The translations under genes and the position numbers were made by a program. A model generated the notes under the pieces. That model saw only the letters and a program-made list of their open reading frames with translations, did no database searches and was not told the DNA's origin. Below are positions 5,619 to 28,510 of a stretch of 32,000 nucleotides of DNA, piece after piece. The stretch comes from Flavobacteriaceae bacterium (GTDB taxonomy: Bacteria > Bacteroidota > Bacteroidia > Flavobacteriales > Flavobacteriaceae). Numbering within the stretch: position 1 is the first letter of the stretch; the number at the start of each line of letters is the position of its first letter. The stretch spans positions 150,001-182,000 of the forward strand of contig OZ245049.1 of the NCBI GenBank assembly GCA_965224465.1. Reading direction: 5' to 3'.

Positions 5619-5675
5619 TGTTTGATAAAACAATTCCACTTTTAAACCGTCACTTGGATAGGTGTTTGGTATAAT

Positions 5676-6100
5676 ACCAACTACAATCCAAAATGACAGA
5701 TGTAAATTGTTTGTTCTATGTTCTAGCGTTGTTGAAAAACAGAACGATTGTAAAGATATAGGGGAACTCAAAAAAGTCTACCTGTTTAGAGGAAGAGAAC
5801 CTCCTTCCTATTGGTTGCAACGAATAAAAGCAGGTGCTAATAATCGAACCCACGTAATGGGAAATGCATGTCAAAATACTGCTGACCAATGCTTATCCGT
5901 ATCTAAAAACGGTAGAAACCAATTCCTATGAAAGAGCTTGAGAGCAAATGACCTAAAAACAGGTGATATCTATAAAGACCTTTGTTGATAGCCTCTTAAT
6001 TAATTACACACGCAATCTCTATAGTATTATCTTTTGAGCCTGTATAGTCAACAGGATGTTCATGGCTGGGCGCTACGCACCGCACGAACACTTAGTTATT
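5676..6100 (+). repeat. R1 copy A: ~425-bp conserved non-coding module (includes the 64-bp core at 5682-5745)
   Basis: Aligns by eye with 18310-18732 along its full length. Identity is near-perfect except for a divergent patch at 5746-5815 that contains indels. Confidence 0.9.
5693..5761 (+). CDS. Tiny ORF, island-type copy (22 aa, MTDVNCLFYVLALLKNRTIVKI)
   Basis: The first 20 codons are homologous to the ORF at 28412. Of the 8 differences, 7 are synonymous third-position changes. The C-terminus differs from the 28412 copy. Confidence 0.35.
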   Translation: MTDVNCLFYVLALLKNRTIVKI

Positions 6101-8337: not shown

Positions 8338-8540
8338 AGTTCTTCAAATGTATGGTAACGTCTAGTATAAGAAACGTAGGGCAATAAATAAGCACTATCG
8401 TTTCGGTTTATTACTTAGCTAAATATAAATATTTTGCTTTTATTTTTCTCCTAAATGCCAAATTTTATATTTAGCGGACTTTGTTAATACACACAGACCT
8501 TCGAGTTTAGCACAAACGCCCTATGTTTTTTATACATTGT

Positions 8541-10663
8541 GTGTGCCCAGCATGGGCATCTTTTAACTACGGAAAGGTAGTTAATTAATCTAGAGGGTGC
8601 AAGTCCCTTATGTGCAGGAGTAACGTTCTGAAACATTAGTAAGTCGCAAGGGTGAAAACCGTGAGGTTTTATCTGAAGATTATTTGCGATTGAGGAATGA
8701 GTAAATACCCTACAAAGCTCGGTACTGACGAACAGAAACCGTATACAGAGGTATAATTACTTGGGTAAGTAAACACATCATTGCAACGCCCAAAAGAATA
8801 CTAAAAGGGTAGTTATGTAGATACGGCAGTGATTGAGTGAACTGTAGCGAAGTGGAACTCAAGAACACCTCTAAAAAATAAAAAGGAGGTGAATAAAGAA
8901 GATGTCATTACCTGGGGAGGTCTCCAAAGCCAGGAGTTGGTTCTATGGAGAAGTCAGCAGACGTCATAGTACCTATGGGAAACGAGTTGAGGAAAGACCT
9001 CAGATGGTCTCACAAATAGGGAAGGACAGAACATTAAATTACGTTGAAATTCAATTAGGATGCCTAGCTAGCCTAGTTTTAAACCAACAGGAGTACCCGA
9101 ATTATTTAACCTATGATTGACAAAGTACTAGAAGCTACCAACCTTTTTAAAGCAGCACGTCAAGTGAAGCGAAATAAAGGAGCTAGCGGAGTTGATGGTA
9201 TGAACCATCCGAGAAGAAATATTCCTAAGAAAGACTATTTATCTTCGGATGCTCTATGTGACCGATTTAAATAAATAAAACCGTCACATAAAAGTAACGG
9301 AACTTTCAACTTATATAGTTGAAAACCGTTCAGACATACTAACAACGATCCGTAAGAATAGCTATGTTCCAAACTCAATCTTAGGAGTAAGCATTCCAAA
9401 AGGCAAGGGTAAAACCAGACTTTTAGGAATCCCAACAGTAGTAGATAGATGGCTACAGCAAGCGGTAAGCCAACAATTAATGGTTCAGTTCGAATTTGAT
9501 TTTGAGCCACTTAGTTTTGGGTTATTCACAGCTTTTTATTTTAGGGAGTTCATGAGCTCCCGTTGGTCGGTTTAGACCACAAAAGAACATTCAAAAAGCA
9601 GTACTACAAGCTCAACAGTATATCAATAATGGTTACCAAGATATTGTAGATATTGACCTTAAAGGGTTCTTTGATGAAGTGGACCATTGTATCCTACTAC
9701 AACTTATTTACCACAGGGTAAAATGTCCAACAACCATGCGTTTAATCCGAAAATGGCTTAGAGTTCCTATTTTAATAAATGGGAAACTTCAAAAGCGTAG
9801 AAAAGGAATCCCGCAAGGAAGCCCAATTAGTCCCTTACTATCTAACATAATGTTAGACGTCTTGGATAAAGAAATGAAAAGAATGGGTTTACGGTACGTC
9901 CGCTACGCAGATGATTTTAGCATTTACGCAAAGACCAAACGTGAGGCGAAACAAATAGGGAATACGTTGTTTGTCTTCTTAAAAGACAAATTAAAACTAC
10001 CTATAAATAAAGCCAAAAGTGGCATTCGTAGACCCGTAAACTTTGAGTTACTAGGACATGGCTTTGTGCCAGTCTACAAAAAGGGAGTAAAAGGACAATA
10101 TATACTAGTAGTAGCAAAGAAAAGTTGGGCAAAGTTTAAGCGTAACCTAAAGAGTATTACCAAGAAAACCAAACCAATGTCATTGTCGGAACGTTTAGAA
10201 CGGCTTAATCAAGTCTGCCGAGGCTGGATGAATAATTACCGTTTAACCAACATCTATGCAAAAGTTAAAAAGCTAGATGAGTGGATAAGAAATCGGTTGC
10301 GATATTGTATTTGGCACGATTGGAAAAAACTCGAACGAAAACGTAAAAACCTAATCAGATTAGGAATAGAGAATGGACAAGCATACGCTTGGAGTAGAAC
10401 CAGAATGGGAGGATGGGCAGTAGCCCAAAGTCCAATTTTAAAGACTACCATTACCAAATCTAGACTTGTACGAAAAGGGTATAAACCTTTGATAGATTAC
10501 ATTAATAATACGCAGACTTCAATTTTTTGAACCGCCGTATAGGTTCATGAGAATTAGAAGTATTTTTATACTTATAATTAGAGATGACCGAGCGAAGCTT
10601 TCGTACGTACGGTGGTGTGAGAGGCGCAGTGGCAACTATTCAGTTGTCACCCGTCTACTCGAT
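8541..10663 (+). mobile_element. Full-length bacterial group II intron (~2.1 kb) with a decayed reverse transcriptase/maturase ORF and no En domain
   Basis: The 5' end is GUGUGCCCAGCAUGGG (compare Ll.LtrB, GUGCGCCCAGAUAGGG). A domain V-like sequence, ACCGAGCGAAGCUUUCGUACGUACGGU, lies at ~10596-10622. Domain VI has a bulged A at 10657, 7 nt from a terminal ..GAU. The RT ORF sits in domain IV. Confidence 0.9.
9113..10530 (+). pseudogene. Group II intron RT/maturase, disrupted by at least two frameshifting insertions
   Basis: Three collinear pieces lie in three frames. Piece 1 is MIDKVLE..GASGVDGMN (9113-9205, frame 2). Piece 2 is VTELSTYIV..IPKGKGKTRLLGIPTVVDRWLQQA..FEP (9294-~9510, frame 3). 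Piece 3 is RFRPQKN..IPQGSPISPLLSN..RYADDFSIYA..RGWMNNYR (9556-10530, frame 1). Confidence 0.85.
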
Positions 10664-10801
10664 TAGGTGTCTGGCTTTTCTTTCCGCAAACTTGCTAGCG
10701 TTGGCAGAAGACATACTCTTTGACAAGTTTTGGATTTAGCGGTTGGTTTTTTAGCGACTTGGCAATGTGTATGGCTTTGTGCGTTGGCTAATTCATTTCA
10801 C

Positions 10802-15394: not shown

Positions 15395-15413
15395 AATTTA
15401 AAATTCGTAATTA
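15381..15413. repeat. ATTACGAAT-type palindromic module e (inverted copy of module a)
   Basis: Its reverse complement, TAATTACGAATTTTAAATTATGAATTACGAATT, matches 13661-13693 at 32/33. It contains the hsdS start codon and its first codons (MNYEL). Confidence 0.9.
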
Positions 15414-15512
15414 GTTGCGTGAGGGATAGTAGTGGCATCCTTTTTTGTTTTTTCGCAAAAAAGATATAACGGATAGCCCGACCCTTGGGGCACGCCCAAA
15501 ATATTTGTTTGC

Positions 15513-17945: not shown

Positions 17946-18105
17946 TTATTTTAGTCTATTTTTTTAAGTTCACAAAGTACATATTTTTTGGCTAACGGAA
18001 TGTAGAGCGTTGGCAAGAAATTACTCTTTTGATTTTTTGTGTTTTGGCTTTGAGCGTTGGCAAAAACCAAATGTGCAATTTGTGTGGTTGGCTTTTTTTT
18101 AGCTT

Positions 18106-18306
18106 GCACCTAACACTCATATATCATCAATAAACTTCCAAAACTTGACGTTATTTCCGTTATATCTATAATAGTTTCGGGGTATGTGTTGTTTTTTTGT
18201 TAAATATACTCAAAATTTTTTAAATTTTCAAGGGGTCCAACCATTTTTTATTGTTATTTCGATGGTCTTGATGTACATCTCTGAGGTTTTTGGAAAAGCA
18301 TAGCTT
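18106..18306 (+). repeat. R2 copy 1 (~200-bp conserved non-coding module, proximal variant A)
   Basis: Aligns by eye with 19849-20045, 21505-21711 and 28200-28389. It lies 160 nt upstream of the hsdM start on the minus strand. Confidence 0.9.
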
Positions 18307-18309
18307 AAC

Positions 18310-18732
18310 ACCAATTACAATCCAAAATGACAGATATAAATTGTTTGTTCTATGTTCTAGCGTTGTTGAAAAACAGAACGACTGTAAGATATAGAAACTC
18401 ATAACAGTCTATCTGTTTAGTGGAAGTGGTCCACCTGCTTATTGGTTACAACGAATAAAAGCAGGTGCTAATAATCGAACCCACGTAATGGGAAATGCAT
18501 GTCAAAATACTGCTGACCAATGCTTATCCGTATCGAAAAACGGTAGAAACCAATTCCTATGAAAGAGCTTGAGAGCAAATGACCTAAAAACAGGTGATAT
18601 CTATAAAGATCTTTGTTGATAGCCTCTTAATTAATTGCACGCAATCTCTATAGTATTATCTTTTGAGCCGGTATAGTCAACAGGATGTTCATGTTGGGCG
18701 CTAGGTAGGTACCGCACGAACACTTAGTTATT
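18310..18732 (+). repeat. R1 copy B (includes the 64-bp core at 18316-18379)
   Basis: Full-length match to 5676-6100. It is directly preceded by R2 copy 1. Confidence 0.9.
18327..18404 (+). CDS. Tiny ORF, island-type copy (25 aa, MTDINCLFYVLALLKNRTTVRYRNS)
   Basis: Same N-terminal 18-20 codons as the ORFs at 5693 and 28412; the tail differs. Confidence 0.3.
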   Translation: MTDINCLFYVLALLKNRTTVRYRNS

Positions 18733-19762: not shown

Positions 19763-19848
19763 ATTTTGGTAACGGATTATATTTTTTTATGCAAGAATAA
19801 ATCTCCTATGTTTTAAATTTATAATTTTTCGTTAATCACATTGTTTAC

Positions 19849-20045
19849 AACACCCGTATATCGACTATAGAACTCTTAGAGTAGTTGTTATTTCTAACAT
19901 AGCTAGAGTAGAATGAGTGATTATTTGTTTTTTTTGTTAAAAGTATTCAAATTTTTTAAATTTTAAAGCGGTCCAACGATTTTTTTATTGTTTATTTCGA
20001 TGGTCTTCGTGTAAATCTCTGTGGGTTTTGGAGAAGCATGGCTTA
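19849..20045 (+). repeat. R2 copy 2 (proximal variant B)
   Basis: Starts AACACCCGTATATC, 86 nt upstream of the lipoprotein start codon. Its distal ~110 bp are identical to R2 copy 3. Confidence 0.9.
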
Positions 20046-20059
20046 GATAAGAAAAAAAT

Positions 20060-20290
20060 CAATTTTAAAGACTACCAAACACAAATCTAGACTTGTACGC
20101 AAAGGATACAAACAGTTGATAGAAACCAATAATAATACGCAAACTTCAATTTTTTGAACCGCCGTATAGGTTCATGAGAATTAGAAGTGTTTTTATACTT
20201 ATAATTAGAAATGACCGAGCGAAGCTCTCGAATGTACGGTGGTGTGAGAGGCGCAGTGGCAACTATTCAGTTGTCACCCGTCTACTTGAT
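20060..20290 (+). mobile_element. 5'-truncated group II intron fragment (end of the RT ORF, then domains V-VI)
   Basis: Matches 10433-10663 of the full-length intron, including GACCGAGCGAAGCTCTCGAATGTACGGT and the domain VI hairpin GTGGCAACTATTCAGTTGTCAC. It ends ..CTACTTGAT. Confidence 0.9.
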
Positions 20291-20838
20291 TAGGCATCTG
20301 GCTTTTTATTTATTTCTTTTTTCAAACTTGTCATTGTCTGTTTTGGAGATTTTTCAATATATCTATTTGCTTTTTCTTTGATTTCAGCGTCTAAAGATTT
20401 TAAATATCTGATAGCATTCTCAATAGAAAAATCGATTCCTTGCTTTTCTTTGAAGTTACTGGGTAAGTCTGTCCATAATACAGCTGAGATATTATTCTCA
20501 TTAGCCCATTGTTCAATGCTTTCTATTAATACATCTGAAAGGTGTGAATTCTTTTCTTTATCTTTCAAATTAATAAATCCAATTCTCTTATTTATTGTTC
20601 CTTCTCGTTGTCTTAAATTCTCTATAGATTTTTCAATATCTGAGCCATCTGAAATCGCCCAATATGTTTCAATTAATGTTCCATGTTTTTCATCAATTAC
20701 TAATGTTAGTCGACCATCCTTTGATATGCGAGAGAATTCGATAGGAAGTTTAACTCCACCTTTATTCCAATCTGAAGCTATTTTTAATTCCCTTTTGTCC
20801 CAAATTAGACTACCCCAAGCTAAAATTGTAATTTTCAT
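20290..20838 (-). CDS. ChaC / gamma-glutamylcyclotransferase-like fold protein (putative)
   Basis: 182 aa. The N-terminal ILAWGSLIWD resembles the (Y/W)GSL(M/I)W motif of ChaC/GGCT. GRLTLVIDEKHGTLIETYWA and LRQREG resemble the ChaC core and its catalytic Glu region. This is from memory only. Confidence 0.5.
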   Translation of the reverse strand: MKITILAWGSLIWDKRELKIASDWNKGGVKLPIEFSRISKDGRLTLVIDEKHGTLIETYWAISDGSDIEKSIENLRQREGTINKRIGFINLKDKEKNSHLSDVLIESIEQWANENNISAVLWTDLPSNFKEKQGIDFSIENAIRYLKSLDAEIKEKANRYIEKSPKQTMTSLKKEINKKPDA

Positions 20839-21486: not shown

Positions 21487-21504
21487 CTTTTTCTGCTTGT
21501 GCCT

Positions 21505-21711
21505 AACACCCGTATATCATCAATAAACTTCCAAAACTTGACGTTATTTCCGTTATATCTATAATAGTTTCGGGGTATGTGTTGTTTTTTTGTTAAAAGT
21601 ATTCAAATTTTTTAAATTTTAAAGCGGTCCAACGATTTTTTTATTGTTTATTTCGATGGTCTTCGTGTAAATCTCTGTGGGTTTTGGAGAAGCATGGCTT
21701 AGATAAGAAAA
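21505..21711 (+). repeat. R2 copy 3 (proximal variant A)
   Basis: Its proximal part is near-identical to R2 copy 1 and its distal part is identical to R2 copy 2. Confidence 0.9.
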
Positions 21712-21725
21712 AAATCAATTTTAAA

Positions 21726-21945
21726 GACTACCAAACACAAATGTAGACTTGTACGAAAAGGATACAAACGGTTGATAGAAACCAATAATAATACGCAAAC
21801 TTCAATTTTTTGAACCGCCGTATAGGTTCATGAGAATTAGAAGTGTTTTTATACTTATAATTAGAAATGACCGAGCGTAGCTCTCGAATGTACGGTGGTG
21901 TGAGAGGCGTACTCTGGCTAAGATAGTTGGAGCCGTCTATTCGAT
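21726..21945 (+). mobile_element. 5'-truncated group II intron fragment with a divergent distal domain VI
   Basis: It has the same 5' junction as the 20060 copy (GATAAGAAAAAAATCAATTTTAAAGAC). Domain V is conserved. The distal stem of domain VI is replaced (TACTCTGGCTAAGATAGTTGGAG) while the base of the stem and the bulged A are kept. Confidence 0.85.
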
Positions 21946-21973
21946 TATGTCCTTTTTTTATTTTTCACGTTGA

Positions 21974-24198: not shown

Positions 24199-24388
24199 TT
24201 TTTGACAAATTTACAAAATTTATTGGATTATTTTAATTTAGTAGTGATTTTTTTTAATTGGGCATGACGTTGTTGTGTATTATTAGTTGCGTGTTTCAAG
24301 TACTAAAGTTAGTAAATAAATCACAGATAGAAATTCCACAAGGACTTTCGTAAATTGGCTAAAACCAACAATTAATTATACACGGTGT

Positions 24389-24812
24389 GTGTGCCCAGCA
24401 TGGGCGTCTTTTAACTATGGAAAGGTAGTTAATTATTCTAGAGGGTGCAGTCCCTTATGTACAGGAGTAACGTTCTGAACTGCGTAGCTCTCAGGAACAC
24501 CTCTAAAAAAATAAAAGGGAGTGAATAACTGCGAAGCTATCATGAACACCTCTAAAAAAATAAAAGGGAGTGAATAAAATCCAATTTTAAAGACTACCAT
24601 TACCAAATCTAGACTTGTACGAAAAGGGTATAAACCTTTGATAGATTACATTAATAATACACAAACTTCAATTTTTTGAACCGCCGTATAGGTTCATGAG
24701 AATTAGAAGTGTTTTTATACTTATAATTAGAAATGACCGAGCGTAGCTCTCGTACGTACGGTGGTGTGAGAGGCGCAGTGGCAACTATTCAGTTGTCACC
24801 CGTCTACTCGAT
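24389..24812 (+). mobile_element. ORF-less mini group II intron (internal deletion derivative, ~424 nt)
   Basis: Its first ~90 nt match the 5' end of the full-length intron. Two tandem 49-nt units follow that match 8842-8890. The last ~232 nt match the 3' end of the full-length intron (domains V and VI intact). Confidence 0.85.
24480..24577 (+). repeat. Tandem duplication (2 x 49 nt) inside the mini intron
   Basis: CTGCGTAGCTCTCAGGAACACCTCTAAAAAAATAAAAGGGAGTGAATAA is followed by CTGCGAAGCTATCATGAACACCTCTAAAAAAATAAAAGGGAGTGAATAA. Confidence 0.9.
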
Positions 24813-24824
24813 TATATGCAGGGC

Positions 24825-28160: not shown

Positions 28161-28199
28161 ATTTTTTTGAAATACTAATGTTTTTTTTGCCTTGCATAT

Positions 28200-28389
28200 A
28201 ACACCCGTATATCGACTATAGAACTCTTAGAGTAGCTGTTATTTCTAACATAGCTAGAGTAGAATGAGTGATTATTTGTTTTTTTGTTAAAAGTATTCAA
28301 ATTTCTTAAATTTTCAAGTTGCCCAACGATTTTTTTATTATTATTTCGATGGTCTTGGTGTACATCTCTGTGGTTTTGGAGAAGCATAG
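28200..28389 (+). repeat. R2 copy 4 (proximal variant B)
   Basis: Starts AACACCCGTATATCGACTATAG, 39 nt upstream of the GHKL gene's ATG. The third copy of the 64-bp core follows at 28401-28464. Confidence 0.9.
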
Positions 28390-28411
28390 TTTTATATTAA
28401 TACAATCCAAA

Positions 28412-28510
28412 ATGACAGATGTAAATAGTTTATTTTATGTGCTGGCGTTGTTAAAAAACAGAACCATAGTATGGATATTCATCCATTTTTTACCTAGCTA
28501 TAAGAAGTAG
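28412..28510 (+). CDS. Tiny hydrophobic ORF, presumed native copy (32 aa, MTDVNSLFYVLALLKNRTIVWIFIHFLPSYKK)
   Basis: Over the first 20 codons there are 8 nucleotide differences from the copy at 5693. Seven are synonymous third-position changes and one gives C to S. This pattern indicates selection on the protein. Confidence 0.5.
   Translation: MTDVNSLFYVLALLKNRTIVWIFIHFLPSYKK

Follow-up and report, generated by a model that had tools for sequence, protein, structure and literature searches.

A short core sequence occurs three times in a 32,000-nt stretch of the genome of a marine member of the Flavobacteriaceae (G000:C1:150001-182000 of a 5.24-Mb single contig; this whole stretch is called the window below), and each time it contains an ATG that opens a small reading frame whose copies seem to differ almost only at synonymous sites. 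The question raised by this locus is whether the core is the 5′ end of a small host gene, kept by purifying selection and carried in diverged versions by integrative elements, as an initial annotation made from the sequence alone had proposed, or whether a codon-like pattern of this kind can have another origin. Inspection of the sequence confirmed the three copies, here designated A, B and C, with their ATGs at 5693, 18327 and 28412, and a self-comparison of the window resolved four repeat modules, namely R, which is about 215 nt long and occurs four times, the core itself, L, which occurs twice, and a 3′ group II intron end, which occurs four times. The features concerned are the following, in window coordinates.

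5624..5675, + strand: remnant of an inverted arm (H′) directly before copy A, about 80% like the H′ consensus as judged by eye
5672..5753, + strand: copy A, a truncated head fragment (model columns about 1-81) joined to module L
5693-5761, + strand: ORF of copy A, 22 codons, ATG at 5693
5760..6100, + strand: first copy of module L, which is a dispersed repeat in its own right and is often found after a truncated head
18093..18307, + strand: module R, a dispersed repeat, directly before copy B
18306..18387, + strand: copy B, a head fragment between R and L that forms the composite junction R-head-L
18327-18404, + strand: ORF of copy B, 25 codons, ATG at 18327
18389..18732, + strand: second copy of module L, 93% identical to 5760-6100
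19846-20045 and 21488-21701: further copies of module R, from the self-comparison
28181..28394, + strand: module R, abutting copy C
28391..28510, + strand: copy C, a complete unit of the 111-nt type with head, middle and tail hairpin (nhmmer match 28400-28507)
28412-28510, + strand: ORF of copy C, 32 codons plus stop, ATG at 28412

Over the first 60 nt of the ORF, copies A and C differ at nucleotides 16, 21, 24, 30, 33, 42, 54 and 57. Our recount gave the same result as the one first reported: seven of the eight differences are third-position and synonymous and the remaining one is TGT/AGT (C/S), the binomial probability of at least seven of eight falling in one phase being about 0.003. Between copies A and B there are two differences, and each of them changes an amino acid (V/I and I/T). 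The copies part after about codon 19-20, in agreement with the described divergence past codon 20 and with the three different ORF lengths; A and B are broken at the identical point and fused to module L, and C continues into the hairpin tail of the repeat to which the core belongs. Copy C also adjoins an M16 peptidase gene.

When the core was searched against the whole genome, it matched hundreds of sites elsewhere. An iterated nhmmer profile gave 1091 matches, reduced to about 685 non-overlapping copies after the removal of reverse-strand shadows, and the repeat makes up about 2% of the genome. The shadows arise because the element is partly self-complementary (dyad symmetry), and two apparent “subfamilies” in the pooled alignment turned out to consist of them; they were removed before any phase test. 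The core corresponds to the first ~80 nt of a 111-nt repeat, which is composed of a head of about 45 nt, a middle and a tail hairpin. A longer form of 162 nt consists of the 111-nt unit plus a 51-nt arm, H′, which is an inverted and diverged copy of the first 45 nt; we aligned 471 such arms, and the reverse complement of their consensus can be aligned with the head. Genomic copies usually have H′ directly in front of the head, as at copy A. Tandem arrays of units also occur, repeating every 111 or 161-162 nt, and the 162-nt unit folds strongly (MFE -45 kcal/mol, z=-4.9).

With genes called crudely as ATG-to-stop ORFs of at least 100 aa, 625 of the 685 copies do not overlap any ORF, in a genome with a coding fraction of 0.81. 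The copies are enriched between convergent genes (30%, against 13% of gaps) and lie mostly antisense to neighbouring genes; in 500-kb bins over the whole genome, repeat orientation and gene orientation are anti-correlated (r=-0.70), which resembles the strand bias of single-strand transposition of the IS200/IS605 or REP type and may hint at a mechanism tied to the lagging strand. The family was found in all four other congeneric species searched, whose genomes are incomplete assemblies with roughly 80% nucleotide identity to this one. Outside the genus, a profile of the peptide matched a few of 300 other Flavobacteriaceae genera, one of them with many copies. Among 17 syntenic loci, defined by a congener copy with matched flanks, eight are empty in the present genome; the repeat moves, or is lost, over the time in which species diverge. 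Where it persists at syntenic loci the family remains near its consensus. Syntenic copies (e.g. C1:803915-804033) are about 80% identical between species and their flanking genes 75-89% identical, thus an intergenic repeat is conserved about as well as coding DNA. No core copy in the window matched a curated RNA family in Rfam 15 at the gathering threshold, a search of Rfam with the full unit at an E-value threshold returned sub-threshold chance matches only, and in the literature that we searched we found no description of such a Flavobacteriaceae family.

The abundance of the repeat allowed the third-position bias seen between two copies to be examined in 473 near-full copies aligned to the profile, which are related to one another and include some tandem duplicates. 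The consensus frame has 28 codons, MTDINSLFYVLALLKNRTIAKAILPFFA, and would encode an amphipathic, basic peptide of 28 aa. Averaged over codons 1-20, the minor allele has a fraction of 0.072 at the first codon position, 0.081 at the second and 0.189 at the third, so that the claimed bias holds family-wide (the third position compared with a mean of 0.076 for the first two, permutation p=1e-4). It persists when G/C sites (p=0.008) or A/T sites (p=0.05) are taken alone, and it stops past codon 20. The eleven most variable third-position columns are 27, 30, 42, 45, 51, 54, 60, 66, 72, 78 and 84, and all six columns of the alignment above 0.25 are third positions; the only rivals elsewhere are codon 12 (columns 58 and 59) and column 82. 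The kind of change also follows the genetic code. Indeed, TTR, TAY and AAY sites show almost only transitions and ACN, GTN and GCN sites show all four bases, and codon degeneracy fits nine of the ten variable third positions. Transitions and transversions stand at 190:374 at 4-fold sites and at 716:264 at other third positions. Synonymous and non-synonymous changes stand at 1160:989, where 22% synonymous would be expected, and the fraction of single changes from the consensus that are synonymous is 0.53 in the forward ATG frame, 0.43 in the matching reverse frame and 0.15-0.24 in the other four.

These changes do not come from a few subfamilies, since the 473 copies comprise 443 haplotypes and the variable columns are in linkage equilibrium, which indicates many independent changes. 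Five syntenic pairs compared between species have 33, 15 and 11 differing sites at phases 3, 2 and 1, respectively, and 29 copies from congeners show a similar third-position tendency. In 26 of these 29 copies there is no internal stop within the 28 codons, and exactly 28 codons are retained by 55% of the ATG copies in the present genome. The start context of the ORF is A-rich, which suits Bacteroidota. We conclude that the codon-like third-position bias in this frame is real.

Columns 54, 60, 66, 72, 78 and 84 (window 28441-28471 in copy C) vary at an exact spacing of 6 nt, and the third positions between them (57, 63, 69, 75 and 81) are conserved; this difference between even and odd codons is not significant (Fisher about 0.07). 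A 6-nt register like that of CRISPR/Cascade was considered but seems unlikely, as sites with just two states, purine or pyrimidine, speak against bases that are freely flipped. Upstream of the ATG, columns 7, 13, 16, 19 and 22 are variable and lie three apart in another phase. Three of them (7, 13 and 16) are variable in the inverted arm too, which cannot code in that frame, so some non-coding periodicity may exist in the element. Two other reading frames were discarded: an upstream +1-frame ORF ending at a TGA that overlaps the ATG has about 8 codons between stops and lacks a start (read by hand on the consensus), and the same-phase frame of the reverse strand, likewise read by hand, contains a conserved TAA that closes it and agrees less well with codon degeneracy.

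If the bias were the product of selection on a translated peptide, the start codon and the frame would be expected to be kept with it. At the start-codon position we found ATG in 214 of 473 copies (45%), ATA in 161 and other codons in 98, and 123 of the 161 ATA copies do not contain any in-frame ATG. The ATA copies are nonetheless nearly as constrained as the ATG copies: divergence at positions 1+2 is 0.071 in the former and 0.063 in the latter, compared with 0.17 at position 3, a slight advantage for the ATG copies (p=0.036). A seemingly much stronger contrast, in which ATG copies were clearly more constrained than all non-ATG copies (Fisher p=1e-6), was set aside as coming mainly from the older “other”-start class, which is more diverged everywhere, the sequence upstream of the ORF included. 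The change of G to A reaches 42% at the start codon and 6-13% at other first- and second-position G's; being far commoner at the start, it marks the ATG as a site free to vary. Net indels within the first 20 codons, which under peptide selection should mostly preserve the frame, point the same way: lengths of -1, -2 and +1 occur 62, 26 and 24 times and lengths of -3 and +3 occur 11 and 3 times, so that 112 copies show one of the three frameshifting lengths and 14 show a change of three nucleotides. Thus the phase pattern depends on neither a start codon nor an intact frame.

In related genomes the outcome is divided. The frame is kept inside the genus, as noted above for the congener copies, and it is lost in a sister family outside it (genome G036, genus g33), where the start position is mostly CTG, no TAG is present and 14 of 22 copies have a 1-nt deletion after codon 20; the consensus of that family and that of the present genome differ at 7, 3 and 6 sites by phase. 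The inference of purifying selection on the peptide has therefore to be split: the codon-phase bias on which it was built is real, and the low share of ATG together with the equal constraint on ATA copies makes such selection doubtful.

Could the mini-ORF nevertheless be translated in a part of the family? Under this reading at least roughly 120-210 copies, those with both an ATG and an open frame, would produce a 28-aa peptide under purifying selection, the repeat would be the mobile carrier of a multi-copy small-protein gene, and the non-ATG copies would have been silenced recently or be kept alike by exchange with active copies. The third-position excess, the match of the changes to codon degeneracy, the exact length of many ATG copies, the stop-free congener copies, the A-rich start context and the two tandem periods of 111 and 162, both multiples of 3, all agree with it. 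That the forward frame is the best of six, and that positions 1+2 are a little more conserved in ATG than in ATA copies, both favour some real coding constraint. However, the peptide is absent from proteins of 35-2000 aa in a large database and has no match in NCBIfam or in the protein Atlas, and the scarcity of ATGs, the constraint on ATA copies that have no alternative start, the frameshifting indels, the broken and stopless frame of the sister family and the mostly antisense position of the elements relative to local transcription make selection on a translated peptide in each copy unlikely. We regard translation of such a multiplied small gene as the best of the alternatives, though still a rather unlikely one.

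A longer parent gene that opens with the peptide was looked for and rejected, because ORFs initiated in the head never exceed 117 aa. In another genome (G169) an open frame of 201 aa proved to run antisense to a 349-aa ORF read as aspartate-semialdehyde dehydrogenase. At G000:C1:1198372-1199600 (-), in a 534-nt tandem repeat, the ATG of the repeat opens 117-aa ORFs beginning MTDINSLFYVLSLLKNR, and a crude ORF of 507 aa at G000:C1:2434993-2436535 (-) starts exactly at the ATG of a repeat copy and in frame; the latter is either an artefact of the gene caller or an N-terminal extension donated by the repeat. We found no transposase or recombinase that moves the repeat; the one insertion sequence examined, an IS1595-family element beside an array, has ends unrelated to the repeat and had just inserted into an arm. 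It measures about 1 kb, has the inverted repeats TAGGGTTACC/GGTAACCCTA, lies at about 1430-2440 of locus L111 (G000:C1:1632010-1635909), in the inverted arm of a four-unit repeat array, and is present in seven nearly identical copies with identical or almost identical transposase proteins. A second IS1595-like transposase (26% identical) is also present in seven copies.

A second alternative is that an RNA or single-stranded DNA structure sets the pattern, the “synonymous” sites being positions that are unpaired or tolerant of wobble pairs, which the initial annotation had allowed for as a possibly better explanation of the conservation. The strong fold of the full unit agrees with it, as do the location of variable columns 54, 60 and 84 in predicted bulges or loops, the A/G column 45, which faces a U, and the upstream columns that vary in the non-coding inverted arm as well. 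However, a helix gives no basis for an exact 3-nt register over 60 nt, copy C alone folds no better than its shuffles, and Rfam offers no match. Variable columns 66, 72 and 78 are random with respect to their predicted partners, no covariation was found between predicted stem partners and variable columns, and many unpaired columns are highly conserved. Stems are predicted, but compensatory changes are absent and unpaired columns stay invariant, and we consider it improbable that structure explains the conservation better.

At the locus itself the modules are laid out as core-L...R-core-L...R-core. Both R and L (the latter a 340-nt module) are dispersed repeats with at least 40 copies each in the genome, and the order R-head-L recurs at other cassette arrays, e.g. 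at 1.026-1.031 Mb and at 0.60 Mb; the head is the stretch of sequence common to all junctions. Between 5.7 and 28.4 kb the window holds the genes of a type I R-M system, an NgoPII-type R-M pair, a GHKL ATPase and an Imm26 protein, together with an IS4-type (DDE) transposase and a group II intron RT. A Flavo-1 RNA (RF01705, 61.7 bits) was found at 15409-15487 (+), between a Bro-N gene and hsdS of the type I R-M operon and on the strand opposite to both. The group II intron at 8507-10679 (+) has an RT ORF of only 283 aa, and its fragments at 20051-20306, 21707-21950 and 24355-24815 comprise two 3′-end pieces that run straight into module R and a mini-intron with an internal deletion.

A Pfam scan of 20 ORFs of at least 80 aa from 3 to 28160, of which 18 lie inside the island 5662-28160 and from which three overlapping ORFs were left out, found no tyrosine or serine recombinase, and no repeat or ORF of this kind is present upstream of the M16 orthologues in nine other Flavobacteriaceae genomes (the closest fetched, loci L101-L109). 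The many copies, the missing integrase and the lack of an M16-linked copy indicate that the core does not form the 5′ end of any host gene used as a target, and with this the proposed conserved small ORF upstream of M16 orthologues and the integrative elements carrying a diverged target 5′ end are both given up. The module order does resemble the attL, hybrid site and attR of tandem insertions into a unique small gene before M16, by site-specific elements with their own gene 5′ ends, but with a core dispersed far beyond element ends and a single target, with R and L themselves dispersed, with no site-specific recombinase between 5.7 and 28.4 kb and with no upstream copy at the M16 orthologues, this reading is close to excluded.

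What we think most probable is that copy C belongs to an undescribed repeat of the MITE/ERIC kind, the head of which also sits in the junctions of defence cassettes, and that the frame is a feature of the family whose imprint is not maintained by translation of each copy. The core would then make up the first two-thirds of a small, palindromic and interspersed element, most of whose positions may be held by a requirement at the nucleic-acid level, be it the hairpin, recognition for copying or homology for recombination. The triplet register could be the legacy of translation in a subset or an ancestor of the copies, or the trace of some recognition process. We know of no mechanism that would impose a nucleic-acid-level constraint with an exact triplet register. 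A stronger claim, that the family is either a small-protein gene multiplied more than 100-fold by a mobile repeat or the target of an undescribed nucleic-acid reader working in a 3- or 6-nt register, seems to us doubtful on the present evidence. As for the cassettes, they may have been joined through recombination within or next to the head, which would explain the likeness of the core to a duplicated att core.

Several known systems share parts of this organization. Integron attC sites and CALIN-type arrays likewise have a junction repeated between unrelated cassettes, as R-head-L is here, but attC sites measure 60-130 nt whereas the R-head-L junction is about 640 nt long, and no IntI was found in the window. 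The BOX elements of Streptococcus pneumoniae and the BIMEs of E. coli are modular, with tandem units and partial forms, in which respect the head, middle, tail and inverted arm of the present repeat may be set against their modules; they have no sequence relation to it, however, it contains no short GC-rich palindrome of the REP type, and we found no RAYT gene associated with the family. Rickettsia palindromic elements (RPEs), reportedly described by Ogata et al. in 2000, are said to be mobile and to have a conserved reading frame through the element. The likeness lies in a palindromic mobile repeat with a conserved frame, but RPEs typically lie in frame inside host genes and are translated, whereas here only 12 of the 685 copies overlap crude ORFs. 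The ERIC/IRU units and their enterobacterial relatives (RU-1 127 bp, RU-2 168 bp, RU-3 103 bp) are MITE-like as well: they are imperfect palindromes, 100-170 nt in length, that occur between genes in many copies and in shorter and longer forms, and they contain ORFs. They belong to another phylum, however, and bear no sequence relation to the present family. Enterobacterial ERIC/RU repeats have been shown to carry open reading frames (Delihas 2007, PMC2759123). Those frames were noted mainly in copies inside genes, whereas nearly all copies here are extragenic and show a measured third-position bias. Given the ERIC/RU and RPE precedents, the kind of element is known, while this family and its extragenic phase bias are new.

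The analysis removes a false lead, as there is neither a conserved small host gene nor the att site of an integrative element at this locus. If translation does explain the pattern, this would be an uncommon instance of a small protein spread in many copies by a mobile element; otherwise it is a warning that a third-position bias in short repeated ORFs is no proof of coding. An abundant repeat supplies common sequence at the joints of defence-gene cassette arrays, and its head could act as portable homology for moving cassettes.
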